A stretch of 48,251 nucleotides of DNA, from assembly GCA_001724265.1 (NCBI GenBank), contig MEDY01000222.1:1-48251 (forward strand), read 5' to 3'. Shown one piece after another: positions 2,585-47,192 of this stretch (position 1 is the first letter of the stretch; every line of letters begins with the position of its first letter). Position numbers and translations under genes: made by a program. This stretch comes from Rhizaria sp. SCN 62-66 (taxonomy: Eukaryota). The notes below the pieces were generated by a model. It did not search any database. It was not told the origin of the DNA and saw only the letters and a list, made by a program, of their open reading frames with translations.

Positions 2585-2615
<31 letters not shown>

Positions 2616-5524
2616 AACAGCGGCAGCAGCCGCAGCCGCAGTATCAGCCCGAGCGTCCACACCTTTAGTCCCAACGCCCCCAACGTCACCGCGAGCAGCG
2701 CCAACATCGCGGCTAATGCAAACGCTAACTCTAACGCTGCTGCTGCTACTGCTGCTGCTGGTCCTACGGTTGACGCTGCAGGTCTGCCGCCGCTGAGCCC
2801 TTTCCCTCCGGCGCGCGCGCTCGCCGCTGCCGCCGCCGCGGCCGCCGCTGCAACGGCCTCCGGCTCGGCCACCGCGTCTGCGTCTCCCAAGAGCAGCACG
2901 CGCTCGCCTGTCTTTGCGTCGGGTCTCAGCCCAAGCATGAGCCCTGCTGCCCTCGACAACCCCAACGCTCTCGCCAACAATAACAACAATAATAACGGCT
3001 TTAATCACAATAATCCACCAGGAACACCTGGCAACGCGCCCGGTACGCGCGGCAGTGCCGGTGGCGGCACCACGAGTCCGCCGGGGCTGCCCCGCGCCGC
3101 TACGGTCGGCGCCAACGCCGCCGCCGGGTCAAGTGGTCACGGCAGCGCCGCCCACACCCCGCATCACGCCCACAACCTCGCTATGGCGGGGGCGGGGAAT
3201 GGCAATAGTTCGTTCAATGAGACCGTGAGCTTCGGTAGCGCGGGTCTCGTGCCGGCGCCGCTCACGACGACTTACAGCGACCTCCACACGCATCTGCGTA
3301 CGCATGGGGATACACATGGGGGCACGCAGGGTGCTCACGGCCATAACGCGGACGCGAACGCGCACGGCGGTGTCATCACTGGCGCGATCAATGAGGAAGA
3401 CACTGAGAGTGCCGCTAATGTAAGTGCTCCCGCCACTAGTGTAAGTGCCAAGGCCCCCGTCGGCGGTCTAAGCGCCCTCATCGGCGGTCTAAGTACCCCC
3501 GCGAACGGTCTAAGTACCAGCCATGGCCCTGCTCCAATTACTGGCACCGCTGCGTTCTCAGTGTTTAGCATTGGCTCAGGCATGTCCGCAAACAACAACA
3601 ACAACAACAACAACACCGTTGCGGCTCTTGCTGCCGGTGGAGATGTTGCTGCTGTTGATCCCAACAGCGCTGTGAACGCAAATGCTGTTGCTAACGATGC
3701 TGTCGCACCGGATGCGCCTGGCAGTATGATGCCGCAGCCTCCGGTGCCGCTGCCGTTGCTGCATACTCAAACGGCGTCGCCTCACTCCGCGTCAGCCTCC
3801 CGGCCGCAGTCGCGCTCGCAGCAGCAGCTGCTGCTGGGCCAATAGGGCCAGCAGCAGCAGCTGCAGTTAACGTCTGTGGCGATGTTGACGACGCCGTCGT
3901 CGTCTGTCAACACCAACTCCAACAGCAATAACCCTCTGCTCGGTAACGATAATAACAATAACAACAACAACAACAACAATAACAATAATCCCAGCTCGAG
4001 CTCTAACTCTAGCGCAAGCATCAACATGAACCCTGCTGCTGTGCTGAGTGCGAATGTAAACGATGCGACAATGTCTGTCGCTGGCAATGGCTTGGCGACT
4101 CATGCGCCGACACCGACTGTGCTCATGTCCGCCGGCGGCGCCTCTGCTGCCGGCACAGGTACGCATGGGCATGTGCTCCCGTTCACCGCGAATGGCGACC
4201 ACAGCCACAGCTCAACGGTGCCGAGCAACGCTGTGACAACGAACATCAACAGCGCGACAGCGGCTCACGGCAACGCGAACGCTGGTTCAAGTGCGCAGTA
4301 TAACCTGACTCTGTCGCCGACCAACGGCTCGTTTGCGTACTCGGCAACGACGGGATCCGTGGTCATGGGTTCCGGCGGCGGCTATAATAACAACAACAAC
4401 AGCACCAGCGGCTCCGTCGTGTACCCAGGTGTTCCTGTCGCGATGCCGGCCGCAATCGCTCTCGCCACCGCCGCTCAGAACAACTCTGTTCATCACCAGA
4501 ACAGCAACAATCATCTGACCATGAACGCGAACGCAAATGTTGACAACGTCGAGAGCAATAACGGTGTGAACAGCGTGATCGACGGTGACGCCAACGCCAA
4601 CTCCAGCGCCAGCGCCAGCGGTGCGAGTGCGGGTGCGGCGGCTGCGGCTGATGCTGGGCCTCTAGCCGCAGCGAACGACGTTGTTCTGGACGCGCGCGCC
4701 GTCGGTTTGCCGGTGCGCACGCAAACGGCGTTCCAGCTCAACAACAACAACAACAACATCAATGTGAACACCAATACGATGAATTCGAACGCGAACGGGT
4801 ACTCGCTTAGACCGTCAGCTGCCTCTGCTGCTGCGCTGACGGCCCTACCGGCCACAGTCGCAAACAACAACGCCAACGTTAGCCATAACGCTAACCCTAG
4901 CTCTAACTGTAGCTCTAGCTCTGCGGTTGTCGCTCCTGCGTTTAGTAGCAACGGGGGGGTGAACGCTGCAAATTCGTCAGACTCTAGCGCCAACGCCAAC
5001 GCTACTGCCACTGCGAATATGAATGCGAATGCGAATGCACTGGGCGCCGGTTTCGTAGTCCCGACCTCAGTCCCCCATCAGGGCCACTTCTCCATCATGC
5101 TGCCCGCGAACAGCACTGCCGCCTCCAATCTCAACTCCGCCGGCAACGCCGGTCTCGCCGCCGGCAACGCTGCGGGGACCGGGATCGGGCCGTACACCGC
5201 GACCAGCGCCACGTTCATCCCCATCCCCGCCGCCGCCGCCGCCGCCAACCAGACCGCGGCCGCGACTGGCAACTCTAACCCCAACCCCGGCGCCGGCGCT
5301 GGCGCTGGTGCTACGGCTGTAGGTGGTGCGCCCGCCTCAGGTCCTCTGGGGAGTTCGTTGGACGCAGCCAGCACGCTGCAAGCGTTGGCGTGGCACCAGC
5401 AGCAGATGCAGTCTCAACAGCAGCTGACGGCCAGCCACATGCCGGCGTACGCGGCGGCCACGCCGTCGCCCGCCGTGCTCAACGACACGGCGAGGCTGGC
5501 GCAGGCGCGGGAACAGTTTGCGAT

Positions 5525-5562
<38 letters not shown>

Positions 5563-5824
5563 GGCAACAGACTCAGCAGACTCAGCAGACTCAGCTACAG
5601 CAACAACAACAGCCTCCGCAGCAGCAGCCGCAACAGCAGGCGTGGTCGCCCTATCCAGCCCCGTCAGTGCAGTCGACAACCAACTCGACAGCGCAGCAAC
5701 AACAGCAGCAGCAGTTTGTGTTTCCCACGCCCGTCTCTCTGCAGTCTCAGGCGCAAACGCAAACGCAGCAGGCTCAGTACTACGGTCAGAGCCAGCCTCA
5801 GACACAGTATCAGTATCAGCAGCC

Positions 5825-5858
<34 letters not shown>

Positions 5859-5948
5859 TTGTATCCAACTTTGCCCCAGACTCTGCCTCAGAATCCGGCT
5901 CAGACCCAGGCTGTCGCTATCGATGCGTTTCCTCAGTATATTCTGACT

Positions 5949-5992
<44 letters not shown>

Positions 5993-9527: not shown

Positions 9528-10143
9528 TATGCCTGTCTGCAAGCACACAACGCAGACAAGCAAGAACTCTAGACACTGTACAACCACCTTTTTAAAAAGA
9601 AAAGAAGAAAGATATGTCTCACTAGAGCGGCTCTGGTGAGACTATTGTGATCACACCCGTATAGCTTAGATCCCGTACTACTCATTTATCCTGTTTACTT
9701 AAATACATCCAACTGTTTTATTCCTCTATTTCTTCATTATAAATTATGCAATCGTGTTTGTGGTGGAAACTGGGCTTTGCTCACGGTCAGTACCAGCCGA
9801 CAGCTCACGGTCACTATTTTAGGCAGCGACAGTTATTCCCAAGTTCGAACCGCTGTCGACGTTTTGTTTTGAAGGTTAACCGCAGTGATCGTCTCCGTAA
9901 GGCATTTAAATGTGGAGAAATGTTTCCGACGGCTTGTTTCATTCTATAATTTGTTGCTGCTGCTATTCTCGCGCGTGCGCGTTGTACATACCGCGCTTTT
10001 TCGTTCTGCCCCGAGGGCCTCAGCTTGAACGGTCTTGTTGGAGGCCCTTCCAGCGTCCTCTTCTTTTGCCTCCAGCGCCCTCCCATGACCGTAGCTCACG
10101 CTTTCTTCTTTTGCTTCGTATAATTCGCACGTGCAGGGCTACG

Positions 10144-27449: not shown

Positions 27450-28511
27450 TATATACGCTTAGCAATCCGTGGCGAAAGCGTCACAGACGTGTGCGAGCTG
27501 CTGTGAGCGCGAAAGATGCTGACGAGACGTGCTTGTGCTTGGAAGATCACTTCTCAATCGCTCTCTCTGGGAGTGATTGCGTTGACGTTGGACTTGCTGC
27601 TTTGGTCTGAGCACAAGTGTGGACGAAAGTGTCCGCGCTGGAGTGCGCTGTGGCGACGTTAGAGCGCGTGAAAAGAAAGACTGCTGGCAGTCTAGAGAAA
27701 GATAGTGAAGATGATGCAAAGACAGAGTCTGTCCTGCTGGGCTGTAAGGTGGTGGGGATGGAGGGGTTAAAAAGGGTCTTGTGAGGCAAATGAAAAATAT
27801 TACACATAACGCTATGGCTGCAGTACATAATTTGATTTTCACCACGGAACAACGGATCTATATCCGCTTTTGAGGTATTACTCACTTGCGCGACTTTGTC
27901 TTCTACGTTCTTCGGTAGACGGCTCAGCTGGTTCCTAAAAATTGACTTCTGTGAGTGCTGTGTTGTTGTAAGTGAATACACCGCGATGAGAACCTCAATC
28001 AATGACAAATATTATTGTTTATATGCTCAATATCTGCATTTTATATTGGCACTTTGGTCGGTTTTTTACGTCTGAGAATATACTTGTAGAACTTCGGTGC
28101 TGCTTGGCGAACGTGCAGAAGCGGGTTGAGCATAACATAGCGCCATTAGATGCAGCAATAAGTTGTATTGTAAATAATCTGAAGTGCATATGAGTAAAAA
28201 AAATTTGGTAGTGTAATAAATAACTCTCAAATTTGTCAGACGAACAATCATGTTGCTGTGTTATTCGTCAACTGTTTACTAGGTAACGAGTGATCGTGTG
28301 ATGGAGAGTACACAAGAGCTTTGTTTGATCACGTATTTGCTCGAAAAAATGAGTCTGCTGGGATAAAAGGGAGGATGCGTCGTATCTGCAGCTATGACGC
28401 CGGCATGTGGCAAAGAATAGCGAGATTAATAAATCCCTTTACTGAAATTGCTACGACTGATGTGAGAGGACCGCTGTGGTTGAGTCAGAAGCGCACGCTC
28501 AGTGTCAAAAT

Positions 28512-29462
28512 TCAGCCATTCGGCGGCTGTGTTCCAGCATGTGTCCTTGCGCTCAAGACTCGCTGCCTCTCGTCAGCCCCTGCCGCCGCCGCGGCCGCCG
28601 CAGCCGCAGCCTCTGCCGCAGCCGCTTTGTCAGAGAAATAGATGTGGTGGCTGAAGGCAACGAACGCCTGTCCGATCGCATAAGCAATCAGCACTGTGCC
28701 CAGCAACGCTGTCATCGGCGTGGGGCCGACGACGCGGAAATACGACTCGATTCCGCGGCAAATGAGCTGCATAGGGTCGGGGAAGCGCAGGGGCCGCCTA
28801 ACTATAGCAGTGCGCATCGCGCCGGCGACGCGGCCCAGCGGCGGCTTGGCCAGGGCGGCGCGCAGAGCGGCGGCAACACGCTGCTGTTGCTGTTGCAGCG
28901 GTTGTTGCTGTTTCCACAGCTGCAGCTGCGGGACAGCGTTGGCGACGGTCGTTGCCGTGCGATGCAGAAACGTCGTGACGCGCGAAAACGCCGAGACAGA
29001 CCGTGAGCGCAAGCTCGTCCAGTGGCCGCGAGCGGCGACTGCGAGGTGGTGACTGTGCGCGGCAGTGGTAAGGCGACTGTGAGCAGCGTCAAAGCGACTG
29101 CGAGCTGCGTCCGAAACGCGGCTGCGCGCCGCGGCGAGGTAACTGCGTGCAGTGTCAACAAAGCGGTCAGCGTTGGCCGTTGCAGTATTAGCAGCGTAAT
29201 GGCTCTAAGTGGGGGCAGCATTAGCCGCATTAGCTGTCGCGGTCGGTGCTGATGTCGCCGCTGTAGCTGCTGCAGCTGCAGGCGCAGCGGGAGCATAAGG
29301 CCTGGCGGTGGGGCCTTCGGCGGAGACACCGGTTACTGCACTGGCGGCATCGCGGTTGCTGTGAAAGCTCGCGCGAAGGCTTAAGCAAACAGATGGAGAG
29401 CTGGTGGCGTTTGTTTGACTGATGTGCTTGCTTGTGAGTTGTTTGAAGAATGAGCCGAGCAT
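28512..29462 (-). CDS. Hypothetical ~316-aa protein with a C-terminal TM helix and a possible mitochondrial presequence; contains an in-frame TAG at 29205-29207
   Basis: ORF 29205..29657 ends in TAG, and the same frame stays open for 64 codons into ORF 28512..29012, which ends in TGA. The bridging segment has a protein-like internal repeat (ARSYLAAARSRVSDAARSRFDAAHSRLTTAAHSH). There is a hydrophobic stretch (MTALLGTVLIAYAIGQAFVAF). The start codon is uncertain because a GTGAGT lies immediately upstream of the ATG. Confidence 0.55.
29205..29207 (-). other. In-frame TAG codon in the hypothetical membrane protein gene (candidate sense codon)
   Basis: Minus strand reads GCC CCC ACT TAG AGC CAT TAC (APT*SHY), with the frame open on both sides. 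Confidence 0.55.
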
Positions 29463-30507
29463 ACTCACACCGCGTCGGGTGGTGCAAGTCCTCCCCGCGG
29501 TGTAGAGTTGTGTGTGAAAAGACTTGAAAACAGTGTGGGGGCAAGGATCAGATCGATGGAGGGTGTGAGAGTGATTGGGGAAAGAAAGAGACTCTGGTGC
29601 AAGTGTGCCGCATAGTCCTAAGCAAACTAGCTGACGCGGCTGTGTTTGAAACAACAAACTGGAACAGTAATTGTGTAAGAAGCAAGCGCAATAGCCATCT
29701 CAAATTGTCGCACTCCTGTTTCATCGTGAGTCGCGACGACACAAAGGCGTAATAGCGGCGTCGCAAGTCCAATCGGAGAGTCGGAACGACAAGATCCGTT
29801 CTGAAGAATCTTGAGTGATAAATGCTTACAAAAGATGCTTCCGAAATATAAACTATAATATCATCATTATTATATTCTGTAAACTACGTTTTACACATGC
29901 ATAACGAATTGAACGTGAGATACACCTCGAAGTTAGAATGTCTCAACCCCTGCGTCGTCTCCACCACAAATCGACTTTTATATGTTGAACAGTACATGTG
30001 GGTATCATATCACACGTTTTAACAGTGAAGGCAAGAGTTTTATTCAAGAATAAGTGTGCGTCACTACTTTTTGAATCACATCATCAAAAATATCGCGGTT
30101 ATAAGCGGTCTTCAGTTTAAATTAGTTGATGTATCAGAAAAAGAGATAATCTAGTCATCTGCAACGTAAGCCGACACTCGCAGCATAGCACAGCAACAAA
30201 ACTCAACACGCTCATAAATACGTGATTCAACGACTCAACAGTTCAGGGAAAAGAACTGTAACACCGCGTACAATACGCGACATTACAACGACATACAAAA
30301 AAAAAAAAATTAACTCTGCAAAACAAAACACGCACGAAAAAATCGTCTTGTGTTCCATATTGTTTTGTGACCTTTCTTTCACTGGTTTCACTGCACTAGC
30401 TCTCTCTACCTGCTTGCTTACTCGCGAGTGAGATCGCACATTTTTCTCCGCGTCGACGTCGCTAATATGTACAAAAAATGTCTCGTATCTGTCTCGTCTC
30501 GTCTCGC

Positions 30508-33500
30508 TCAGTGTGTGATGAGACGAACTCCGCCCAGATCCTCGAGCTTAAGCGTGAACCCTGGCTGCGGCGACGTGATGAACAGGTGGTTGCGCCCAAT
30601 CCCGAGCTTGACACTGATGTACGCCACCATCGCGGGCGTGAACCGGCCCTTGACCAGCACGAGATCGATGCGCAGCTTGAGGTACTGCTCGTTGAGCATC
30701 TGCACGTTGTGAGCCAGGAACGGCGGGATGTTGCTCTCGTGGTCGAACACGTGGATGATGCGCAGCCACGAGCAGTCCTCGTTGTCACGGATGTACAGCA
30801 CGGCCTTGTTCAGCACAGACAAGTCGCCGTTCTTGGTGAAAAACCCCATCGGCGCGTCGCGGATGCTCACCTGGGCGTCGCGCAGCCACTGCGCCACGTT
30901 CCACTTCCGGCCGCTGCAGCAACCGCCGCCGCCGCCGCTGCCACCGAGGCGGCGGCTGCGGCGGCCCCCCATCGCGGCAACGCCGCCGCCGCTGCTGCTG
31001 TTGCAGAGCTCGGCGCCGTTGCTGTTGCTGTTGCTACTCGCGTTACCGCCAGCGCCGGGGGCAGCGCCGGCGGCGGCGTTGCGGCGCAGAGTCATCTCGC
31101 TCTCGTCGCCGCCGGAGTAGGCCGTGGCGAACTCGCAGTCGCTGCCGTCGTCGTCGCTCTCGCTCTCGCAGCCGCTGTCGCCGTCGCAGTCGCTGAGGCC
31201 GCACGCGATGCGGCCCGCGACCGCGACAGCGCCAGCGCCAGCGCCAGTGCCCGCGCCCGCGCCGGAGGCGGCGTGACCGCTGCAGCTTCTAGCGGCAGTG
31301 CTAGAGTTGCCGGTGCCGCTGGCGGCGCTGCGGGCGCCGGCGCTGCTGTGGGGGATAAGGGGCGCGTCGGGGCCGACGGTGGCCACGGCGTCCAGTGCGC
31401 CGTAGTCGCTGCCGTTGAGGCTGCCGCAGGCGCTAACAGCCCCCACCCCCACGCCGCCGCCCACGCCGACGCCGACGCCGGAGCCGGCAACGGAGCCGGC
31501 GACGGAGCCCAGGGCCAGCACGGTCGACGTGGCATTAGCCTCGGCGTCGGCACCGGCGCCAGAGACGGCAGCGCCGGGGGCGGCCGTAGGACAGTGACCG
31601 TGCCCGTGACCGTGCGCGTGGGACTTGCGGGGGCGAGAGGACGAGGAGGACGAGGAGCGACGGCCGGAGCAGATGCGGCAGGGCAGCCCCGAGGCGACGA
31701 AGGCCAGCAGCCGCAGCACTTGGAGGCGGAAGAACATGACGAGGATGAGCGACCAAGCGATGGTGAAGTAGAGCGAAAAGACAAACACGATGTCGGGGTC
31801 GCGCAGCACCGCGCCCACGATGCCAGCGCACGTCGCAAAAAATGCCACCAGGGCCGCGGACCAGCTCGTCGTCACCTCGGCGACAAGCGTCGCGCCTGTG
31901 GCAAAACAAAGAGATACAACAAGGTAGTGAGTGAGGTGATAAGAGAAACGCATTGATATAAAGATATATGGACACATAACAGCATATAAGCATAAAATAT
32001 AACAAAGATAACTCAATGCATCTTAAGATCACAGAATGTTGCAAGAATCCGTGATATTGCGAAGTTATTGTGAGATATAAACGTACGCTTGACCTTGATG
32101 AGCATGACGCCGAGTGCAAAGAGCCCCATGACGAAGAGGAACGCCAAGGAGTATGTCTGCGCGAGCGACGTGACGTTCTGGTCCAGGATGAGATACATGG
32201 AGCAGCAGAGCGCGCAGAAGGAGAAGATGATCCAGTGGTTCGTATGGCGCAGCGAGTTTTGCGCGAGGAAGAACTGCGGCAGGCAGCGGTCCATAGCGAG
32301 GCGGCGCACAAGTCCGGTGACGCCGACGTAGGCCGTGAGGACGCCGCCGGCGAGCACCAGGAAGGCGTCGACGCAGACGACGGTGTCAAGCCACGTGCCC
32401 TCGATGACGGTCGAGGCCAGGAGTCCGACGATTGTGGTGACGTGTCCGCCCGCGATCACCGCGGACAGGTCCAGGAACGTCACAGCGGCGAGCGAGAGGA
32501 GGATGTTGAAGATGGTACACAGGACCCACATGTTCCGCAGCGTCTTGACGAACACGCCGGGCTTCTGTTCCTCGACGTAGTTGGCGGAGCTCTCGAAGCC
32601 CGTCACGCCAAGCATCGCGGCGGAGAAGCCGTAGAAGATGGCGAGCCCGAGCTTGGGCTGCATCAGCTTCGTGTACTCGAAGTTCTTCGCGAGCCAGAAG
32701 AGAGGAAAGCCTTCGCCCGTGTCCGCGGCGGCGGGCCCGCCCCCGGCGGCAACGCGCACGTAGAAGACGACGCACATGACGACAAGGAAGGTCATGGTGG
32801 CTATGTGGGTGCAGAAGATGCCGAGCGCGACTGAGGCCGACTCGCCGATACCGACGAAGTTGAGCACCGCGAAGAGCAACAACAGCCCCAGCGTGCCGTA
32901 GAGGATCCAGTCCTGGTCGAAGCCGCACGCGCGCTGAAGGTAGTGCATCGCTTCGGCGGCGCAGACGACGGCCGTGGCCGTGTACGAGAGCAGGGTGAGC
33001 ACGGCGGCGATGGCAGCCGTGGACTTCTTGGTGGTGTTGAGCAGCACGTTGTACGCGCCGCCGTTGAGCGGCAGCGACGTCACGGCCTCGCCGTAGACGC
33101 CGCGGAAGAGATACAGCACCATCGTGACGAAGAAGACCGACAGGGGCGCGAACACGCCCGCCTCCTGTGACGTCTGCCCAACCATGTAGAAGAGGCTGCC
33201 CGTGGCATCGTTGCCGCAGATGGCCGTCGCGCGCGCCTCGCCCAGCTTGTGTCCGCGCCGCAGCAGCGCGCGGTAGGGCTGCAGCGAGCGCGTGACGCGC
33301 GCCGCCGCGGACCGGATCGGCCCCAGTGTCGCGCGGGGCTTGCCAACATCAGCGGCGGCGGCGGCGGCGGCAGAGTCCGCGCCGGCCGCGCCAGCCGAGG
33401 CCTTGCCGGTGTGGCCAGTGTTGTCGGTGTTGCCCAACAGCGAGGCGTTCATGTCACTGCGCGCCGAGACCTGCGCGGGCCCGTCCGCAGCGCCGCCGAT

Positions 33501-34909
33501 GCTGTGGCTGGGGCCGCGCGCGCGGGAGGAGCGCGACATCGACATTGCGGCCTTGCGGGTGATGGGGTGCATCAGCGTCGACTCGGACTCCTGGTAGTGA
33601 GAGTCGTCGCCTGTGTTGTTGCTCGCGGCCAGGCTGCCGGTGGCGATGATGGGGGACAGCTGCGAGTGCAGGGCCGTGCTCGCGGCGGTGGAGATGCTGC
33701 TTGCGCTGTTGTTGTTGCTGTTATTGTTGCCACTAGCAGTCGAGGCGAGGCGCGGGGACGCGATGAGCACGTGCTTGCCGGAGGTGCCAGAGGTGCCCGG
33801 GGGGGTGCCGGCGCCGCTGCCGCTGCTGACAGTGCCGTTGGGGTTCGTGATGAGGTTCGGGGAGCCGGAGCGCAGTGAACCCACCACGAAACCGCTGCCA
33901 CTGCCGCTGCCGTTGCCGTTGTTGTTGTTGTTGTTGTTGCTGCTGCTGGGCACAGTGGGGGAAAACCCGTCGTTGCCCGTAGACTCGAGGTGGAACTTGA
34001 GGGGCGTGGCGAAGCCGAGACGCTGCTGGTTGCTGCCCAAACCGCCGGCGCCGCTGCTGTTGTTGTTGTTATGAGGCAACAGAGCAGAGGCGGCGGTGGC
34101 AACGGGCGCGAGAATGCCGCTGCCGTTGCCGCTGCCGCCGCCGCCGCGGCCGCCGTGGCCGTGGTGGTGGTGATGATGATGGTGCGAGGGCGGGGGAGGC
34201 GCGGGGGCGCCACGAATGACGTGTGAGTCGTCGACATGGCTCCCTGCACCGCCCTTATTGCTGTTGTTGCCGGCGGAAGAAGGCGCGAGTTGCGCCGCCA
34301 GACCCGCGGTCGCGCGGCCGTCACCGTCGCCGTCGTAGAAGTGAGGGTCCGTCGAGTCCTCGTAGTCGTCAAAGTCGCCCTCCAGCTCGCCGGCGAGGAA
34401 CTCGGCGTCCAGCGCCGTCAGCGCCGCGGGCGGGACGATGATCGAACTAGACCATGCGTCGTGCACGCCTGGAGAGCAAACATTGAAATGTAGAAGAAAA
34501 ATAAAAACAAATCAGGTTGGGAAATGTAAGTATAGTCACAATAATTCAAAATCGCGTCGAAAATCGTTCCGAGATAAACGCGGTTTACTGCGTTCGGCGA
34601 GGAGAGGATATCGTTGGACGTACTGCTGCTGCCGCCGTTGTTGTGACTCGAGGTCGGGAAGGTGCCCTCGGGAAAGGTCTCCGTGCCGGACATAACGACG
34701 TTGAGGTGCACCGAGGATGGGTACGCGCTGTGGAGCGGCGCGGTCGAGCCGAGCGAATCGCTGTGCGCGAGCGACGTCCCCGACAGCGAGTCGGTGCTGG
34801 TGGAGCCGGCGAGAGCGCCAGCAACGCCCGCGCCGCCGCCGTCGGCAGAGGCATTGCGGGGGGAGCCGCCGGTGGAGCTGTTGGAGCCGCCCAAGCGTGC
34901 AGAGTCCAT
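30508..34909 (-). CDS. APC-superfamily amino-acid permease, ~1351 aa, with a long disordered N-terminus and a C-terminal soluble domain
   Basis: Exons: 34909-34624, 34468-32087, 31895-30508; both introns are GTACGT...CAG in phase 1; total 4056 nt. About 12 hydrophobic segments with motifs ATAICGNDATGSLFY, LPLNGGAYNVLLNT, GFESSANYVEEQ and LAMDRCLPQ, then FFTKNGDLSVLNKAVLYIRDNE. It ends in TGA. Confidence 0.88.
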
Positions 34910-35935
34910 TTGTAGTGCGGTGAGCGCGCGTCTAGCCGTTTCTTTGCCGTGTGAAGGGAAAGAAAGGGCAGACGAGGACCGCAGAAACAAAAGTTCTGCT
35001 AAAGGGGGGACTGTGATTAAGGCGATGTTGGAGTGTAAATAGGAATGAAATAGCACGATCAAGTGGAAATTAAGTGGAGCAAAACAAAGACCAAGTTGAC
35101 ATAGCAAAGGCAGCTCGTCTTTCTTGTCAAAATGATGGTTGAAACAAAAGGTCAAGTCCACCGTGTGGCTCGCAGCGGTCGTCTGTGCGAAAATCGATAT
35201 TGGATCTCCATCTACAAATCCGTGCACAGTGCATGCGGGCAAATGCTCGAATAACATATCTTCGTGTACAAACTACATGTTCAATAATACTCCCTAAAAG
35301 TGAAACTACATCTCGGAAAAGCCGTGTTCGTTCTGCCCCCATCCTGGGTCGCTCTCGTCATCGCGTTCGCCCGTCGCTCATCAAAATCACTCAGTGATCA
35401 CATAGTTTCTCTTCTTCGCACTCCACAAACTACGTTTCCTCGAAATTCAACTTGTGATCACGCTTTTTGTATGCGGTTCTTAGTGTTTTCAAGTTTTTTC
35501 ATTTCCAACCACTCTGGGATATCTCCTTATCTTGGGTGTGAGTACCTCGCCATACCGCAGGCACTGTTTTGGACTCAAGCAGTCACGCAACAGTCTATGT
35601 TCGGCCCAAATTGACTTGCAACACCGCCGATCAAGTTAAAGACAGACGTCAACCTTGTTTCTGTCACTTGTTTCAACAGCACCACTGATTCTGATCACTG
35701 TGGATATGACCGTAACATCAGCACCTGCAAACCAATATCTTCTCTTCATTCACGTCGAAAAAGGCAATCAAAGAAGCTAGTTTATTCATGGACTATATAG
35801 AAATAACTCAAATCAATCTCAACTGCATCGACAAGCGGCGAGAATGATAAACAAAAACTGTTCAGATACTTTTATGTTTCTTCAAGCTGCACTCCGTTGA
35901 TTTCACAAAAGGCTCACTCACGCGACAAAAAGCGC

Positions 35936-37595
35936 TTAGCTGCGCTTGAGCGTGACACTCGCGACCATCTGGACCAAATACCTTGCCACCGCCGGACCCA
36001 ACGTCTCCCTCCGCCTCCCACCAATCGCCCCGCCATCACCACCGCTCCCAGCCGCTCCCGCCGCTGCCGCTGCCGCCGCGGCTGCTGATGCTGCGTTGTG
36101 ATTGAGTCCCTGGTTGGTGCAGATCTCCCCCACGCGCGCCACAACGTCAACCCACACGTCGGCCGCGCCCAGCGTGGCCAGCCCGGCCGCCTGCGCCTGC
36201 GCCACCGCTCCGCCCACACTCACCCGCCGCAGTGGCAGCCGCGACGCCGAAGGAGACGGCGACACGGCCGACTGACCGCCGCTGCCACAGCTGTTCGCGC
36301 CAGCTGCCACCGGCGCCACGGTGAGCGGGGCGAGCGAGAGCAGCAGCGGCGGCGGCAGGAGCCCGAAGTCTTTCTCGAGCTCTGCGGCGGCCGCGAGCCG
36401 TTTGGCGCGGGCAGCGGCCTCTCGAGCACCCACAGCCGGCGCGGCACCTGTGGATGCGGCGGACGTCTTCGCTGCTACCTCTGCGGATAGGAACGAGAGA
36501 GGAATGATGGCGCCGTGGGCCAAATATCGAGCAGCTTGCTGCTGCTGCTGCTGTTGCTGCTGCTGTTCAGGGACGGTATTCGCAGCATTCGCAGTATTCG
36601 CAGCGTTGTGGCCGGCGGTGTGGTTGGGCAGCACGAGCGCGAGCCCGCGGAGCTGGAGCTCGTCCCGGAGCACCTTGACGACCGTGGTCCGCAGCGCCTG
36701 CACCGTGGGCAGCACGGCGAAGACCCCCGTGGCGCGCCCCTGCGACACGAGCGGGATCTGGATGAGCGCGCGGAACCAGGCCTACGAGGCCGCGGCCAGG
36801 CGCTGGCCGCGCACCACAGCCGCCGCGCGCAGCGCCACGGGCGCCGAGGTCGTCGTCAGCGCCAGGAACGGGTCCGCGGACCGGGCAAACTCTCGCGACT
36901 GAGACCGCGCCACGGCAGCCAGCGCGGCCGAGACCGACAAAACGCCGTCGATCGGGCGCAGACGCAGGCCGCGGCGCAGCGCCACCGCCGAGAGCGTCAG
37001 CGACGCGGCCGCGGTCGACGCGAACGGGGACTAGTCGGGTGAAAACAATAGCCGCAAACGCAAGAGAGATGTGAGTTGTGTTAAAGTGAAACATTGCGAG
37101 AGATAAACAACGCGTATGAAGATAAATCAAACATGTAGTCAGACGGGAAATGCACTCCTTAAAATAATATGCCACAAGTTCCTAATATTTAGCCATTTCT
37201 GTTTTATATCTAGATTTGACGTACTTTGACGACGGCCCCGCCCGACGCGGCCGCGCAGTGGACGGCGACGGCCTCGCCCAGCTCGGCCCGCGCGCGCTGC
37301 TGCAGCGCCACGGCGGCGGCGCGCGTGACCGTGGCGTGCATGTCGAGCACGAGCACGGTCACGGCGTGCCGCGGCAGTGCGGCCTTAAGCAGGAAGAGAT
37401 AGAGCTCGAGCGCGGAGACGTGGCCCGGCGGAGGCAGTGCGCCGCCCGCCGCGCCCGCCGCGCCGGCTTTGGGCGGAGCGGCCCGGGGGGGCGGCGCGGC
37501 GGCGGCGGAGGGCTGGGGTAGCGAGCGGTCGAGGCGTGCGCGGCAAAACGGGCACACATCACCGCGATTGACACTGCCGCCGTTACTGCTACTGT

Positions 37596-37626
<31 letters not shown>

Positions 37627-39946
37627 AATGTTAATGCTTGCGTTGGTGTTGCACCAGCACGTGCGCGCAACGGCGGCGCCCGCGCGCGCGCCCGCTGCAG
37701 TGATCACGGGTATCACGGCCGCCACAGCGGCGCAGACCGAGGGCGCGTCCAACACGACCGTGACCGCGGGGGCGGACATCGCAGCGTATGGCGATAAGAG
37801 CGGATACAGCGATCGGGGCAGCGGCTGCTGGGGCGACTGGGGCGACGGGGAACTGGGAGACTGCGCGGGGTCAGGTGGCTGATGTGGCTGGAGACTGATA
37901 CGCTCGTTATTGTTGCTGCTGCTGAGGTTGCTGGAGACTGTGCTGCCTTGATATGAGCTGGCGAGCAGTGCTGCGACCGCCGCAGCCCGCAAAGCACGGT
38001 CGCTCTCAGTCGCGCCACTGTTCCCGCGCTTGCTAGCATGAGTCGGAATCAAGGGAATGATCGTCGGGACAACTGATGGCAACGCACTAGAAAAAGAATT
38101 GCAGTTGGCGCTCGAGCTAGAACGAGAACTGCTTGCAGATGAGCCGACGGCGCTGGCGCTGTTGTTCGCGTTGATAGCCGCATTGGTCGCGAGCGCGAGC
38201 GCTTGCTTCGACGCGAGCGCCTGTGGCAGCGTTGTGGGCGTAGGCAACAGAAACCGCCACGGCGCGAGGCCACCGTCCCAACCGCCGCCGCCGGCTGCCG
38301 CTGTTACTGGACTTGCAGCTGCTGCTGCTGCTGAAGCCGATGCGTTACTGTTGCCGGGGTAATCACCGGCGACAGCGCTTTTGATATTGCTGTCGACGGC
38401 GATATGAGTCGGCAGGAGCGGCGGCAAGGGCGTCGCAGCGGGTAAGTGCGCGAGCTGTGTAAGCACCCAGTTGGTGCAGTCGCCGAGACTCAACGGCGCG
38501 GCCGGGATGACCGGGAAGGCCGCGGTGGGCGACGGCGACGCGGCGACAACGGCGGCGGCTACTGAGGCCAAGGCGGCGGCCTTAGACTTGGTGTCAGAGT
38601 CGGGGTCAGCGGCAGGAGTACCCGCAGTCTCCGCCGGCGTCGTGGCGCCTGCAGTGCTGCTCCCTGCCGTTGCAAGGATTGCACTGACGTTGATGTTGCC
38701 AACGTTGACGCTATTGGCACTCAGCGCGTTCAAGTGCGCGTGGGACAGCCCCTTAGCCGCCGTATTCGTGCTGCTTGTCTTAGGACTTGCACTGCTGCTG
38801 CAGCTGTTGTTCTCATAATTGTCGTCGTCATCGTCATCATCGTCCTTAAGGCCGGAAGGTTGCGGCAGGGGAATGAAGCAGTGCACACTGGCGAGATTAA
38901 GCGGCGGAAGCGACATCTCCAAGGGCCGCTGCCAGGGAGGCACTAAGTAGCCCTGCTCGCAGTCTAAGTAGCCCTGCCGCTCCAAGTGCGCCTTGTCTAA
39001 GAGCGCTGATTCAGTCGAGGCTGAACCGCGCTTAGATCCACTGGCATTCGCGCTGGAAGCACTTGCCCTGTCTGCATCGTTGTTGTTGCATTGTAATGGG
39101 ACAGGGTGGCCTGTCACCGCCCGGGTCAGCACCGAGGCACGCGCAGTACTTAGATACTCGCCGGCGCTTCCGCTCACGCGCTGCGCATCTGCGTCGGCTT
39201 CGTTACTGCGATACCCACAGTCGACCCCGTGGCCGCGATCGTGACTGTGCCGAGCGTCGGCAGTGCTGTCACTGCTAGCCTTAAGAGCTGTTGCTTTGAG
39301 TCCAGTGACTGAGCTATAGCTCCCAGCTCCTCCGCTGCAGCCACCGTAAGCATCCGCAACAACTGCAGCAGCCCCTACGCTCATGCTGACGCTACCGTGA
39401 TCGGCTGCACTTGCACCCGCACCCGCACTCGCGCGAGAGCTGCTTTTCGCAGCGTGCGTGTTCGAGACGGACGCGGGGACAGAGACAGAGAGGCCTGCGC
39501 CGGGGCAAACATACTGCCGCAGCTGCGGGGGGAAGTCGGCGGCCGTGACCAGCGCCAGCTCCTCCGCCGGCGACACGAAGCACAGCGTGTCCCACCACTG
39601 CTGCGCGCCCACACCTCTTAGATCGGCGTAAGGACCCGCGCCGCCGCCTCTGCCAGTGCTACCACGGCTGTTGAGGAGAAACTGCTGCTTGCCGTTCAGC
39701 TGGTACGCTCGGTACGAAGTGTAGGCGTTGAAGTTGTAAATTGTCGCTGTGTCGGCGCCGGCGTAGGCCCCGTCAGCGCGGAAGTTAAGCCGCATGCGTT
39801 CACGGTCGTTCTTCGGGACCGCAGTCCAAGGGGACTGTGCCCCACTTACATTCAAGCCGCCGCTTCCAGAGGTACTTACATCACGAGAGCCACTCACACG
39901 ATAACAAACGCGGTTGTCGCTGCTGTCACTCACTAAGCTGAAACTA

Positions 39947-39978
<32 letters not shown>

Positions 39979-41128
39979 CATGCTGTGGACGCTGCCGCTG
40001 CCATTGCCGGGGCTACGAATGACCGTGAGCGCGGTGCCGACCGTGGTCGCAGCGGTCGGCGGCGGGAAGCGGGGCTCGCCCAGGCGCCGGAGCAGGGACG
40101 GCAAGCCTGCCCCGGCCGCGGTGGCCGCGACCGCCACGGCCGAGACGACGCCGCCCTTGTACTCGTACTGACTCGCCCGCTGCGCACCGACGACAGCGAC
40201 GCTCGAGCCGCTGCTGCTGCCGGCCTCGACGGGAGACTTGCTACTCAGGCTGGGACTCGCGCCGCTGTTCGGCTTGCTAGTGTTATCATAGTCGTAGAGG
40301 CCGTTGCTCTCCTCCTCCTCCTCGTCTTCTGCGTCAAACTCGCCGTAGCCGTCGTCATCGTCGTCGCCGAAGCTCCTCTGGCCGCGCGCACTCACCTCGG
40401 ACAGCGTGGTGTCGGCCTCGTAGCTCCAGTACGCGCTAGCGCCCGCGACTCGCGCGAACGCCACCGCGCCCGCGACGGGCAGCCGCATCAGCGCAAAGCG
40501 CATAGGGTGGTCACGCCGCTGCGTCAAGAGCTGCCCCAGCAGCGCCACGACGACGGCCGCGGGGACGCGGACGTCGATGAGGGCGACGGTGTCGCGCTCA
40601 CTGCCGAGCGCGGGCAGCGCACCCGGCCCCCGACTGTAAAGACGCGAGGCGTGCACAAACGGCGGGGCTGCCAGCGGCGATGACAGCAGCGCGGCGCTGG
40701 CGCTGGTGCTGAGGCGCGGAGAACCAAAATCTAAGCCGCCAACGGGCGGGGAAGTTAAGCCGCTCGTGGGCGCATCGCTGGGGGAGGATAAGCTCGAGCT
40801 CTGCGCTGGTAGTGATTGCTTCATGCTTTGCTCGTGCTGTTGCGGTTGCTGTTGCTGCTTTTGTTGCTGCTGTTGCTGATGTTGTTGCTGTGGGCGTAAA
40901 AAGGCGCCAATGATGTCGTTTCTTGCCAGTTTTCTCGCAGTGACCGCACTGCTCACAGCCGCTGCGCTGCTGTTGCTACTAATATTCATTGCGCTACTGC
41001 TACTGCTGCTGTTGCTGCTGCTGTTGCTGCTGCGGCTAACAGTCAAGTCGGCGGCGGTGCTCTTAGTCGTCTCGTTGCCACCGACAGCACTCGCACTCGT
41101 CTTTGCAATAGAAGAAAGGAAACCAGTG

Positions 41129-41164
<36 letters not shown>

Positions 41165-41768
41165 ATTGTCACAGCAGTCGCGGTGCTCTTGCTGCTGCCT
41201 TTGTTGAGCTTCCTTTGCAGCCTCTCCGTCAGCGTCAGCGCCAAGTCGTCGTCGTTGTCGCTGCTACTGCTGCTTACGCCACCGAAGCGCTGCCACTGCT
41301 TCAGTTGGTGGTCGTGTTGCATGAGCTGCGACAGCGACGACGACTCCTGCTCCGGTTGCTGTTGCTGCTGTTGCGAGGAGGAAGAAGATGTGGCGGGGCG
41401 GGGCCGCTTGTACGTCTGAGCAACGACACCGTCGTCGTCGCCATCGTCAAGCATAACGTCGCCATCGACGTCATCGCCGTTGGACGGCTTACTTGCGCTT
41501 GAGCGCGAAGCAGATGCAGAAGCGGAGGCGGAGGCAGGGGCAGCAGCGACTTTTTCTGCAACAGCGGGCTTCAGAGGCTGTTCACAAACTACATGAAAGT
41601 GAAATTCAGTGAGAAAAAAATGTGAGTTAAAACACTTTGAGGTTTGGAGAGATATGGCAAAGCTTTTGTTGATGCGAGGAACTTACTTTCGCACTCAGCG
41701 AGAAGGGCCGAGTTGAGGTAAGTGCAGCTGGGGCAGGAAATGCCACGCCCGCCATCAAGATGAGCCAT
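35936..41768 (-). CDS. EME1/MMS4-like (XPF/ERCC4-family non-catalytic subunit) protein with an N-terminal RanBP2-type zinc finger, ~1846 aa; contains an in-frame TAG at 36782-36784
   Basis: Exons: 41768-41687, 41588-37225, 37030-35936 (introns GTAAGT..TAG and GTACGT..TAG; total 5541 nt). The spliced N-terminus reads CPSCTYLNSALLAECEICEQPL (RanBP2/NZF pattern). The C-terminal segments AWFRALIQIPLVSQGRATGVFAVLPTVQAL and RRRETLGPAVARYL resemble, from memory, the EME1 (HhH)2 motifs VWRRQIQQLNRVS...A.AV...YPS...L and RRIGPELSRRIY. It ends in TAA. Confidence 0.65.
36782..36784 (-). other. In-frame TAG codon immediately before the HhH-like domain of the EME1-like gene (candidate sense codon)
   Basis: Minus strand reads GCC TCG TAG GCC TGG TTC CGC. 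ORFs 36782..36985 and 35936..36748 share the same frame. Confidence 0.72.
41129..41164 (-). repeat. (GAT)n microsatellite encoding a poly-Asp run
   Basis: (TCA)12 on the plus strand; translates as DDDDDDDDDDDD in the EME1-like frame. Confidence 0.9.
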
Positions 41769-42902: not shown

Positions 42903-44932
42903 TCACTGCAGCGGCGTGCCCGCAAGCGGCTCGACCGCGGCGACCACGGAGCGGTTGGCGAAGCGGCGGCCGTGCAGCACCGCCACCGCCTGCTGAGCCT
43001 CCGCCGTCGTGCCGTACGCCACAAACACCTCCAGCTCCCCGTTATCGTTGTTGCGGACGAGAGTGACGGCGCGCACGGTGCCCCAGCGGCGGCACTCGTC
43101 GGCGACCTCGTCGGTCAGCTCGGCCACAGTCGCCTCGGCCAGGTCCGCCTCGGTGAACATGTTGCGCAGCCGCACCGTGCTCACGGTCGCCTGGGACTGC
43201 TGCTGCTGCGGGGCAGTGTTGTCGGTAGCGGAAGACGCGGCGGAGACAGGCGCGGGCATGGACGCGTACGCAGGGGCAGGGACAGCAGGGGCGAAAGCGT
43301 TCGCATTGCTCATGTTGTTCATGTTGCTGGGGGCAGGGTTGTTGGTGGGCTTGACGACGATGTTGCGGGAGCCCAGCTTCTGGCCGTTGAGCTTTTCCAT
43401 GGCCATCTTGGCGCTCGCCTCGGTTGCGAACTCGAGGAACCCGTGGCCCTTGTGGCGGCCAGTCGAGTGGTCCTGTCAAAGCAAAGAAGAAGAAAAAGAA
43501 ATGGCACAGTGGCATGAGACGATGAAGTCATAAAAGAATTAAAACAGAAAATATCATTAGGTAATAGCTAGATGCACCTTAGTGCACAGTTTGATTTGAT
43601 GTTTCGACTTAAACTAACTCAAAAACATGCTAACTGTTAAGTCACCACACATACCTGGATGAGGTTACACGAGCGGACCTCGCCGAACGCGCTGAAAATG
43701 GCCCGGAGGTGGTCTTCGTTGAACTCGGGCGCAATCTGGGCCAGGAACACCCTGCATTCGGTGTTGCTGCCGCTGCTGCTCACGCCCGCACCCGCGCCGC
43801 CGCCGCCGTCAGCGCCCGCCGCGCCCTGTGCCGCGCCGGCCGAGTGGCCGTGCGACGAGGCGGGTCCGTGGGGCACCTGCGTCGGCACGACGGGCACCAG
43901 AGGGGTGACTGTGAGCAGCGCGGGCGCCTGCCGCGCCGCCGCCTGCGGGTTGGCCAGCCGCGGCAGATTGGCGCGCATGGCGCGGCCGGCGACGAGGTAC
44001 CCGTTGAGGGCCGTCATCGCGCGGACCGCGTCGGCCTGGTGCGCGAACTCAACGAAGCAGAAGCCCTTGGTGTGGCGCTTGTCCGTGTCGCGCGGCATGT
44101 CGACCTTGGTGACGGGCCCCACGACGGCGGACACGATCGCCAGCACGTCGCCCTCGGTGACGGTGTAGTCGAGCGAGCTCAGGTGCACGCGACGCGCAGG
44201 GTCGTTGGGGATGCCAGTGATGGCGATGGGCGCGCCTGCGGTTGCGTATTCGGTCACCAGCGCGCCCACCGGGGGCGCCGCGGCGGGCGCGGACAGCGCG
44301 GACAGCGGGTCGGCGGCAGCGCCGCCGCCACTGCCGCCCAGCAGAGGGTTGCCCCCGCCGGGGACTGTGTTGGTGAAGAGCGAGGCAGCTGTGATCTGGT
44401 CCAGCGCGGCCGCACCGGCGCCCGCCGCAGCGCCACCCGGCGCGGCCGCAGAGTATAGCGAGCCCTCGAGCGCGGCGCGGCTCGCGCGTTCGCTGGCGCG
44501 GGAGATAAGCGCGCGCGCGTGCGTCAGCGTGACGATCTGCTGCGCCAGGAATGCGTTGCCCGCGTCGAAGCCGTCGGTGGCGACGCGGCGGCGCTTCGGC
44601 AGCGGCACAGCGGCCGCGGCCACGGCGGCCGCGTGCTCAGGGGACGTCAGCGCTGAGTCGGGCACCGCCGCGGCGGCGGTGGGGCCGGAGCTGGAGCTTG
44701 TGTTCGAGTTGAAGATGGCGTTGCTGAGGGCGGAGAGGCCCGTTTTGGGGTCGACTTTGAGCGCGGAGTAAACGTGACGGTTCACGCCCTTGGGGAGGTC
44801 AGCAAACACAGAGGGCATGGCCGCGATCGCGAGCGCAGTCTCTTCGGGGTTGCTCACAGGCATAGGCACAGGCGCAGGTGCAGGCGCTGCAGCAGTGTTG
44901 TTGTCGTGGTTGACTGACTCCATGCTGGACAT
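42903..44932 (-). CDS. PUF60: PUF60-like poly(U)-binding splicing factor (RRM-RRM-UHM), ~615 aa
   Basis: Exons 44932-43655 and 43472-42903 (phase-0 GTATGT..CAG intron 43473-43654). RRM1: RVHLSSLDY...KGFCFVEF. RRM2: RVFLAQIAPEF...FSAFGEVRSCNLIQ|DHSTGRHKGHGFLEF. UHM: VRLRNMF...EVADECRRWG...LHGRRFANRSVVA. RBM39 is the less likely alternative. It ends in TGA. Confidence 0.8.
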
Positions 44933-45663
44933 CGGGGGCTGTGTAAGAAGAATAAGTGAGGTAGGGAGTCGCCTGGAACGGGGGAAAGGAGCGGGGAAAC
45001 AACAAAGAGAAGCTGTGGCGAGTCGCTCGATGTCTGCGTGCTGGCTGGCAGGAGAGAGAGCTTAGTTTGGTTAGAGGTCTGTGAAGAGGGAGTAGAGAGG
45101 AAGATCAAAGGATACGCGGGGGGTGGTGAGCAGCTGTAATGGGGCTTGAAAATGGATCATTTAGATATGCAACTCTGGTGCATATAGAAAAGGCTGTAGA
45201 TGTCGTAACGGCCAAAGAGGCGAGTTGCAATCGATACAATCCGAACGCTGGTCGTGTGTGTTGTGACCAACCGCTCTCTCGAGGTTCGCAAAAAAGCCGG
45301 CCGTCGCGCGACTACCACGAGCGAGAGGAGAAATGCTTACTGAAACAGCACCACTTCAAGAACGCGGCTGCTGCGTCGTTAAATATCCGGCAGTGGATTT
45401 TTGGCGACTTCGATGAGGTTTTATGTATGGAAATACGCTAATATTTTTTGCTAGCAGTTGCCCAGTCGATGTCTTGCGTGCCCTGTCTCATCCGAAACTG
45501 TTCCACCTCTCGCCTCACCACACTCCACTTCTCACCACACACTACTCCGTTTCCCCGCGCCCACTTGTTCTCCCCTTTCTTTGCGCTTGCAACCACAGCG
45601 TTCCTCCGCGCCCCCACCACCGCTCGTTGCCCGTTTGTGCGTCTCTCGCAAGCAACCACTCCC
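44933..45663. promoter_or_regulatory. Putative bidirectional promoter region between the divergent PUF60-like and MOB genes
   Basis: The head-to-head start codons at 44932 (-) and 45664 (+) are only ~730 nt apart. Inferred from gene layout only. Confidence 0.4.
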
Positions 45664-47192
45664 ATGGGCCAAGGCAAATCGAAGGAGGCAGCCCACGACG
45701 GCGCCTCTGCTGACAGCAAAAAGGACAAGAAGGACAAGAAAGACAAGAAGGATAAGAAGGACAAGAAGGACGCTGGTGGCAACAGCGCCGCTGCCGCCAC
45801 CCCGTCTCCTCAGCGCGCCCAGCCCCTCCACACAAACTCTCACTCACCTGTTCTTGCTCCTGCCTCTGCCGCTCCTGCCGCTGCTGCTGGTGGCATCACT
45901 CGCACGGCAACGGTCCAGTCCACCCCCGCTGCCCCCGCCGCGCTGCCCTCGTCCTCCTCCACCGTTCCTGTTGTGTCCACCAACAACGCCAACGCTGCCG
46001 GCAAGCCCTCTTCCGCTGCCGCTGGCGTTGCTGCTGCCGCTGCCGGCGACGGAGAGGGTGACGGCGAGCGTCTGGCCGCCGTTGACCTCACCGACGTCCC
46101 TGAGGGTACTCAGCAGGCCGCCTACGACCACTGGTCTGCGCTTGCGCCCCCCGAGCCTACCCCTGCCTCTGCCCCCCCTGCCCCTGCGCCGGCCACGGCC
46201 ACGGCTCCGGCTCCGGCTACCGCTGCTAAGGACTCCAACGTCAAGGATAACAATAACGACGCCGCTGTTGCTGCGGGCAACAACAACAACAACACTGCTG
46301 GCTCGGGACTTAAGCGCAACGCCTCGCTCAAGAACCCCGTGCCCCCCTCCCCCGCCAACGCCAATGCCAAAGACGCTGGCAATAGCAACGGCGCTGTGCG
46401 CGCGGGCACGCTGCGGCTGCAGAAGACGATGCGCGACACGATGACGGCGACCCCCTGCGCCGGCGACCTGCGGCAGCTCGTGCGATTACCCGCCACAGCC
46501 GACTGCGACGAGTGGGTCGCGCTCAACACGATCCACTTCTACCGCGCGTCGCGGATGATCTTCGACTCGTACTCGTGTCTTTGCAACCACCTCACGTGCC
46601 CCTCGATGACCGCCGGACAGGTATGTCTTGGAAAACCCTCGAAAACCTTGAACTGCACCACTAGCAGATCTTCAAAGCGATGTATCTCGAGTCTTGATGT
46701 TATTTCAATATCTCCATGTTTATGCTCGTTATTAACTAGTATCATTTGTTTTATCAAATAACTCACGCATATACCCCTCGGACTGTCTTCTTTCATTCTT
46801 AGGTTGAGTACCTTTGGCGCGACGGCAAGCAGTACCCCGCCCCCACGCGGGTCCCCGCCTGCACCTACATCGCGCTCGCGCTGGCGGACGCGTTGGCGAC
46901 CATCGACGACCAGGCCATCTTCCCGATCCACGAGGACCAACAGTTCACGCCGGCGTTCCTGGTCGCCGTCAAGGAGATGCACAAACGCATGTTCCGCATG
47001 TTCGCGCACCTGTATTACGCCCACTACGAGCAAATCAAGAAGATGGGCTCGCACCGTCACCTCAACTCGAGCTTCAAGCACTTCATCCTGTTCGCGGTCG
47101 AGTTCCAGCTGCTGGACGCGGCCACGATGGCGCCGCTGCAGCAGTTCATCGACCACATCACGTCCACCAACAGCACGGTCAAGGCAACTTGA
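45664..47192 (+). CDS. MOB1/phocein-family kinase activator with a ~250-aa N-terminal extension, ~448 aa
   Basis: Exons 45664-46620 and 46803-47192 (intron GTATGT..TAG, phase 0). MOB motifs: LRQLVRLP..D.DEWVALNT, C...TCPSMTAG|VEYLW.D, DDQAIFP, KRMFRMFAHLYYAH, HLNSSFKHFILFAVEFQLL. It ends in TGA. Confidence 0.92.
45718..45771 (+). repeat. Six tandem 9-nt units encoding (KKD)6
   Basis: aaaaaggac aagaaggac aagaaagac aagaaggat aagaaggac aagaaggac. Confidence 0.9.

Follow-up and report, generated by a model that had tools for sequence, protein, structure and literature searches.

The window, a stretch of 48,251 nucleotides analysed at its full length, is the whole of one contig (C222) of a 34.9-Mb assembly in which exons are GC-rich and introns AT-rich. 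The public runs containing this contig were bioreactor, wastewater and activated-sludge metagenomes. A three-exon gene on the minus strand, here called EME1-like, lies among genes assigned by Pfam, and an in-frame TAG occurs at three places. The features were as follows.

41687..41768, minus strand: exon 1 of the EME1-like gene, with the ATG at 41768; CPSC...CEIC is encoded here and at the beginning of exon 2
41589..41686, minus strand: intron 1, 98 nt, GTAAGT...TAG, predicted from the sequence
37225..41588, minus strand: exon 2, long and of low complexity; the ERKxxxD nuclease motif was not seen in its translation
37031..37224, minus strand: intron 2, 194 nt, 37% GC, phase 0, with donor GTACGT at 37224 and acceptor TAG at 37033-37031
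35936..37030, minus strand: exon 3, 364 codons and a TAA
36782..36784, minus strand: in-frame TAG, codon 1565, probably read as Glu; Glu105 in the orthologue P0122
36692..36781, minus strand: first HhH-like motif, with profile matches in the orthologue that are below curated cut-offs
35939..36016, minus strand: C-terminal RRETLGPAVAR helix, conserved in the orthologue and within the modelled MUS81 interface
35936..35938, minus strand: TAA, terminator of the gene at the end of the frame
3843..3845, plus strand: second in-frame TAG, in a Gln-rich stretch of a 2396-codon low-complexity F-box-like ORF (2337-9527), with coding signal on both sides
29205..29207, minus strand: third in-frame TAG, in a possibly coding ORF (28512-29699) with no Pfam match
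9910-20521, plus strand: large cysteine-rich Ephrin_rec_like protein (Pfam)
21716-27458, minus strand: metallo-beta-lactamase-fold protein (Pfam), presumably CPSF100-like
30508-34511, minus strand: amino-acid permease (Pfam)
43637-45061, minus strand: RRM protein (Pfam)
45442-47191, plus strand: Mob1 (Pfam)

An in-frame TAG in an EME1-like gene

The minus-strand TAG at 36784-36782 was codon 1565 of a three-exon gene of 1846 residues. It stood in the context AAAS*AWFRALIQIPLVSQGRA with a Trp two codons later, and the frame beyond it was open for 281 codons to the TAA at 35938-35936 (minus), in agreement with the sequence-only reading, which had given the same distance to the Trp and about 280 open codons. 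The 5541-nt frame held two stops, this TAG and the terminal TAA, and the Markov coding margin around the TAG was 10.8 upstream and 14.6 downstream. The CPSCTYLN...CEIC sequence encoded across intron 1 (41687-41768 and 41560-41588, minus) is a putative zinc-finger pattern of the RanBP2/NZF type. Among the contig pieces listed from four public runs none crossed 36784 and none contained a splice joint. RNA-library contigs were located at 35789-36008 and 36097-36299 and were indistinguishable from DNA, and of the pieces listed from the RNA run none extended across a TAG. Gene calls on 5 contigs included the protein that begins downstream of the TAG.

Three matches to the window protein were obtained from 1.84 billion representatives: the piece that follows the TAG, P0122 (56% identical, E 3.6e-44) and P0123 (33% identical). 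P0122 has GAASEAWFRMLIQIP opposite AAAS*AWFRALIQIP of the window, with Glu105 exactly at the TAG column, in line with the earlier view of the site as informative. P0123 was gapped at this column. The 82 codons that lead from the start of exon 3 to the TAG were 64% identical to P0122, and the similarity to P0122 began at the exon start at 37030.

The TAG could in principle be an alternative acceptor for the 37224 donor, in which case it would never be translated. Splicing to 36782 would preserve the frame, as noted earlier from the sequence, with 83 codons removed, and TAG commonly acts as an acceptor in this genome, four kinase TAGs and three others being intron ends. However, the orthologue retains the residues that would be lost, its similarity starts at the position of the 37030 exon and the TAG column is occupied by Glu and not by an intron end. 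The stretch of 30 nt leading up to 36782 was 87% GC with 3 T, compared with 50% GC and 12 T for the one leading up to 37031, as expected from the earlier remark that a pyrimidine tract is present at 37031 and missing at 36782. Because 82 deleted residues are 64% identical in P0122 and the upstream sequence is so GC-rich, the use of 36782 as an acceptor was considered extremely unlikely; it would also leave the TAGs of the eRF1 and UBE2J1 genes unexplained. The alignment supports, by both residue and exon-start position, the view that the TAG is not a terminator and that 37031 is the real acceptor. On sequence grounds, what looks like a stop in this DNA-repair gene most probably does not interrupt it.

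The region downstream of the TAG had been read as an EME1-type HhH region and the segment upstream as the end of an ERCC4 domain. The latter assignment was not confirmed, the segment having no Pfam match and an ERCC4 search of the genome finding two other loci, neither of them in the window. The catalytic MUS81, with ERKMTAD, was located at G000:C456 and XPF at G000:C133. No Pfam family was found for the window protein when the read-through exon was searched, and a short piece of the protein gave one unrelated weak match only. Two profiles matched P0122 from two residues past Glu105 onwards, HHH_5 (E 1e-4) and EME1-MUS81_C (E 0.015), neither of which reached its curated cut-off. A genome search with EME1-MUS81_C returned MUS81 as the only match. 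A PDB sequence search with the single exon gave 0 matches, and a three-sequence profile matched solely the FAAP24 HhH domain (E 0.67 and 1.5). Alignment of the window protein to the organism's own MUS81 with hhalign had the correct register at a probability of 0.4%. AlphaFold2 models of the window protein reached a pLDDT of 40.7 without an alignment and 52.7 with three sequences, and Foldseek and VIA searches with these poor models gave nothing clear, a result that carries no weight against the fold.

A complex of the C-terminus of the organism's own MUS81 with P0122 residues 85-265 was modelled with a score of 0.84, against 0.10 for the best of 3 controls, a value that may come from the predictor's memory of a solved pair. 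At least 73% of contacts were shared between runs and the partner pLDDT was at least 62. The modelled interface comprised P0122 residues 101-115, 130-136 and 254-263, and thus included residue 105. Among microbial pairs, 51/78 solved and 2/108 mismatched ones attained the mark set for the complex score; among eukaryotic pairs the corresponding figures were 39/65 and 2/126. Because MUS81-EME1 is a solved pair and the partner was taken from a relative, the model suggests likeness, not binding, and does not tell which family member binds.

The gene resembles EME1/MMS4 of the XPF/MUS81 family, which also includes FAAP24 and ERCC1, in its C-terminal HhH motif and terminal GPxxAR helix, in a protein without a visible nuclease motif, in the presence of an intact MUS81 elsewhere in the genome and in the modelled contact. 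It differs in that its 1846 residues are mostly of low complexity with no ERCC4 Pfam match, and in that the window protein itself is under every family cut-off. An XPF/MUS81-family HhH region downstream of the TAG is supported by the weak profile matches and by the model, and to this extent the earlier proposal stands. The gene is probably EME1, the non-catalytic partner of MUS81, and less probably FAAP24 or ERCC1.

Distribution of in-frame TAG and the residue at TAG columns

A Markov coding model was applied to 229 records, about 0.88 Mb distinct of the 34.9 Mb. Stops flanked by coding signal on both sides were 14 TAG, 7 of which sit in stretches selected for a TAG, together with 2 TGA and 1 TAA that were of low complexity. 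Putative gene ends from a heuristic model over about 0.88 Mb were 76 TAA, 70 TGA and 10 TAG when unfiltered. Ends whose final 30 nt contained a donor-like motif were then dropped, which removed nine TAG candidates and left 54 TAA, 54 TGA and 1 TAG, so that TAA and TGA accounted for 108/109. The eRF1, HSP90 and dynein genes were among those ending in TAA. As a Glu codon UAG would be rare, with a share of about 0.2% of all Glu codons at most (14 TAG to 578 GAA; GAA 174/2336). A GC3 pattern search returned 22,042 matches that were mostly antisense and uninformative.

Internal stops were found in 14 of 142 kinase matches. Twelve of the 14 were examined, and comprised 5 with a single in-exon TAG, 4 with a TAG at an intron end and 3 running through introns; an in-exon TAA or TGA occurred in none of the 12. 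No TAG was present in about 32,000 dynein codons. In-exon TAG was likewise absent from the ABC matches examined (0/20 with stops), the DEAD matches examined (1/43 with a stop, which was an acceptor), the WD40 matches (0/149 with stops), the kinesin matches examined (3/54 with stops, the TAG being an acceptor and two matches unopened) and the HSP90 and GlxRS matches examined. In these further families the TAG lay at an intron end in C40, C108, C390 and C660, and the inspection did not extend to the stop-bearing matches C520, C178, C66 and C101. The base of the third window TAG, at 29205-29207, was confirmed by contigs from two public runs belonging to two studies. Two of three divergent paralogous kinases (L106, L107 and L108, at G000:C148, C49 and C9) had an in-exon TAG, and L106 had a second TAG in a neighbouring frame.

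Homologue columns were informative at three TAG sites. The eRF1 column, corresponding to human E107, held 114 E, 6 D and 0 Q among the 120 best homologues, and the UBE2J1-like column (n = 76) held D 42, E 10, S 9, T 4, N 4, G 3, K 1, gap 3 and Q 0. Among kinase paralogues of the genome Glu was joint top at two TAG columns and 1/30 at a third. Pfam scores summed for seven residues placed at six TAG sites were E 457.3, K 455.8, Q 455.4, S 452.6, Y 447.7, L 445.2 and W 443.7, with E the best residue at 4/6 sites and K at 2/6; the E-Q margin was 1.9 bits and the sums hardly separate E, K and Q. Leu, 12.1 bits under Glu over the 6 sites, was rejected, the variable loop of the CUA tRNA also being short, and Trp and Tyr were rejected by the same sums. 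Gln, initially favoured, was abandoned in view of the findings on the tRNA, on eRF1 and on the orthologue.

A single tRNA with anticodon CUA was identified at G000:C84:76008-76080 when ARAGORN was run on 41 of 44 pattern matches, the other 3 being tRNA-Leu(CAG) genes. It has a full cloverleaf with every pair standard, scored 58 bits with Rfam, is single-copy and is followed by a T run; free-energy folding alone did not recover the cloverleaf and was not beyond shuffles (z -1.5). When compared with 37 other tRNA sequences of up to 78 nt, a length filter that places Leu, Ser and Tyr tRNAs outside the comparison, it was nearest to the organism's own tRNA-Glu(CUC) (47/73), followed by His (40), Asp and Lys (39) and Gln (33 and 29). 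No tRNA with anticodon UUA was present among 14 matches to a pattern that would miss intron-bearing tRNAs. The tRNA inventory was incomplete, with 63 of 506 candidates scored and tRNA-Glu(UUC) not seen among these, and a DNA search for tRNA-Gln found CUG genes only. Three class Ic (Glu/Gln) tRNA synthetase genes were located at G000:C207, C27 and C9.

A sense UAG might be read as Gln, as in Iotanema spirale, or be ambiguous between Glu and Gln through a mischarged CUA tRNA. One divergent ubiquitin-like copy has a TAG where the organism's own ubiquitin has Gln, several TAGs lie inside Gln runs, the Pfam margin of Glu over Gln is slight, and the tRNA(CUA) carries U35 and G73, which are identity elements of glutaminyl-tRNA synthetase in bacteria. 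Against this, Gln was found in 0/120 eRF1 and 0/76 UBE2J1 homologues at the TAG columns, the orthologue P0122 has Glu, and the tRNA(CUA) agreed with tRNA-Gln at 33/73 and 29/73 positions only. CAG becomes TAG by a single transition and Gln runs would gain TAGs whatever UAG encodes; TAGs in Gln contexts may accordingly be CAG-to-TAG transitions tolerated as Gln-to-Glu changes. Decoding as Gln was judged unlikely, and Glu was retained as the preferred residue. The ubiquitin-like unit with the TAG (L175:1246-2100, G000:C681) is fused to a tail and may be mobile or viral; the tail presumably resembles peptidase S74 chaperone domains.

The TAGs might also be true stops, produced by assembly or sequencing errors (GAG recorded as TAG) or by pseudogenes, with the tRNA incidental. 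One base separates TAG from GAG, position 36784 is uncovered among the listed contigs, and the assembly comes from mixed samples, judging by the runs that contain the genome. Errors or decay would, however, also yield TAA and TGA, whereas the in-exon stops were almost only TAG. The essential eRF1 gene was found once in the genome and its TAG is repeated in a second record, the TAG at 29205-29207 has independent confirmation, TAG is nearly missing from gene ends and an intact CUA tRNA is present. This explanation was considered very unlikely.

eRF1 and the reading of UAG

In the eRF1 gene (G000:C63), which ends in TAA, codon 111 of 441 is an in-exon TAG that aligns to human E107. A record in another collection (L192), whose source may be the same sample as the window, was identical over 1626 nt, TAG included. 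Substitutions were found in the stop-reading motifs at invariant or near-invariant columns, namely T32S, G57S, T58K and K130Q. Column 32, in the GTS motif, was Thr in 81/81 homologues and is Ser here; columns 57 and 58 were G and T in 120/120 homologues and are S and K here. The G of UAG is bound by Thr32, a residue replaced by Gly in Iotanema (PMC5304391) and retained, as part of GTS, in the standard-code relatives of Iotanema (PMC9161772).

A metagenome scan for eRF1 genes with K58 gave one identical record and 10 unrelated genes, with no eRF1 gene of a relative among them. Since five unrelated K58 genes end in TAG, T58K is not diagnostic. Among unrelated eRF1 genes with T58K, six (L193, L195, L196, L198, L199 and L202) had YYCGERF or YYCGEKF replacing YLCDNKF, and 4/6 ended in TAG. 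An intronless, very divergent eRF1 gene at L197:10001, on a 403-kb contig, also ended in TAG and is guessed to come from a giant virus. Two AT-rich eRF1 genes with KASNIKC (L194 and L201) both had an in-frame TGA at human residue 73; L194 had a further TAA downstream and L201 did not. These two are either pseudogenes or another case of a stop in eRF1.

Because TAGs lie at Glu or acidic columns, a CUA tRNA resembles tRNA-Glu, gene ends are poor in TAG and eRF1 motifs are changed, the organism, an uncultured single-celled eukaryote, very probably has a variant nuclear code, as judged from sequence data, in which UAG is a rare codon for Glu while UAA and UGA are stops. A duplicate of tRNA-Glu(CUC), altered at the third anticodon base to CUA, would have provided the decoding tRNA. 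The CUA anticodon would pair with UAG and not with UAA, and charging would still be by glutamyl-tRNA synthetase. T32S in eRF1 would weaken the contact with a third-position G, allowing the tRNA to win at UAG. The window gene would then yield the full 1846-residue protein with Glu1565 at the start of the (HhH)2 region, most likely the EME1 partner of MUS81. The sequence-only reading is upheld in treating the TAG as a non-terminator; the probable cause goes beyond that reading, being a genome-wide assignment of UAG to Glu with its own tRNA and not readthrough specific to the gene.

Programmed readthrough that depends on context, under the standard code and aided by a natural suppressor tRNA, with UAG still ending other genes, was also considered. 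The extreme rarity of in-frame UAG and the single CUA tRNA gene would fit such a system, as would the one TAG gene end and the nine TAG candidates set aside for a donor-like motif. However, no context common to the TAG sites was evident, the TAGs lie in the middle of essential domains, TAG made up 1/109 of the putative ends and the GTS motif of eRF1 is altered. The probability of programmed readthrough was placed close to nil, and a sense UAG read as Glu remained the preferred interpretation.

The UAG at codon 111 of eRF1 might in addition act as a feedback sensor, if the code change is incomplete or leaky; this was regarded as possible but doubtful. If some termination at UAG persists, surplus eRF1 would cut short its own translation, and the mRNA would be directed to NMD. 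The TAG lies 477 nt upstream of an exon junction, and UPF1 is present in the genome. In a gene with 90% GC3 and 31 Glu codons a TAG would be expected by chance about once in 17 or less at a frequency of at most 0.2%, an estimate that concerns one gene noticed post hoc. Bacterial prfB is autoregulated by an in-frame UGA and a frameshift. The eRF1-1 mRNA of plants is subject to readthrough and NMD at the normal stop (PMC5397192). In these systems, as possibly here, a stop-type codon in a release-factor mRNA could couple synthesis to the strength of termination; the present case differs in that the in-frame UAG is at a conserved N-domain Glu and has a dedicated tRNA, and the regulation is hypothetical. 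If correct, this would be a eukaryotic parallel to the autoregulation of bacterial RF2, seen in an organism at the ambiguous-intermediate stage.

Known codes and the host lineage

UAG-only reassignments are described for the rhizarian exLh (Leu) and Iotanema spirale (Gln) (PMC5304391), and for phyllopharyngean ciliates (Leu, Gln) and Scotinosphaera (Ser) (PMC11687900). These codes resemble the present one in that UAG is sense, UAA and UGA are stops and a CUA tRNA was predicted or found; in Iotanema Thr32 of eRF1 is altered too. The present code differs in that the residue is Glu and the tRNA Glu-derived, and in the rarity of UAG compared with exLh, which has 384 in-frame UAGs in 71 genes (PMC5304391). 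Neither Leu columns nor a CUA tRNA derived from tRNA-Leu were found here, and neither Gln columns, apart from the one ubiquitin-like counter-case, nor a CUA tRNA derived from tRNA-Gln.

A further parallel is provided by an oligohymenophorean ciliate in which UAA is Lys and UAG is Glu, presumably the strain labelled PL0344. It has ten tRNA-Sup(CUA) genes nearest to tRNA-Glu, and UGA is its sole stop (PMC10553269). UAG is likewise read as Glu there through a CUA tRNA most similar to tRNA-Glu, but the ciliate differs in its sense UAA and in its number of CUA genes, UAA being a main stop in the present genome and a single CUA gene having been found. Peritrich ciliates and Blastocrithidia read both UAA and UAG as Glu, and Blastocrithidia uses UGA for Trp, with dual meanings (PMC11687900, PMC5304391). 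UAG is Glu in these codes also, but so is UAA, while no supported in-exon TAA or TGA was found here. A sense UAA, as UAA/UAG = Glu or with UAA = Lys and UAG = Glu, is not indicated in this genome, TAA forming 54/109 of the putative ends with 1 unsupported internal candidate.

Neither a code with UAG = Glu in which UAA and UGA are stops nor an in-frame UAG in any eRF1 gene was found described in a literature search covering few subscription journals. Within that literature UAG = Glu was found only where UAA was also reassigned. Few nuclear codes separate UAG from UAA, and the examples found assign UAG to Leu, Gln or Ser or reassign UAA too. UAG = Glu with both other stops kept would, if true, be a new code table. 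TAG sites, the tRNA that would decode them and an eRF1 in which Thr32 has changed independently for a second time are all available in a single assembly, and the question of how eRF1 drops UAG alone therefore becomes directly testable. With UAG at so low a frequency, such codes could escape screens that depend on large numbers of internal stops, and essential genes, among them those for eRF1 and EME1, are cut short by standard annotation. A natural eRF1 that is blind to UAG and competent for UAA and UGA would be useful for amber-suppression work.

Dynein heavy chains in the genome indicate a flagellate. The ubiquitin genes (L173-L184) are single units that start with MSMQIF and end with RGGHPQ, some of them clustered, and a tandem polyubiquitin junction was not seen in 12 loci of 23 matches. 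An insertion of one or two residues between polyubiquitin monomers is a rhizarian character (PMC12930898, PMC6133090). The 18S gene (L172:1501-5945, G000:C706) is very divergent, 4445 nt long and interrupted by four group I introns. The MSMQIF ubiquitin and the divergent 18S suggest that the host belongs to Cercozoa, perhaps Helkesida/Sainouroidea; such an 18S fits helkesids and is not specific to them, and nothing was seen pointing to a ciliate. If the host is a sainouroid, UAG would have been reassigned twice in that clade, to Leu and to Glu. The 18S gene also contains about 500 extra nt before the first intron match, a possible homing-endonuclease remnant.
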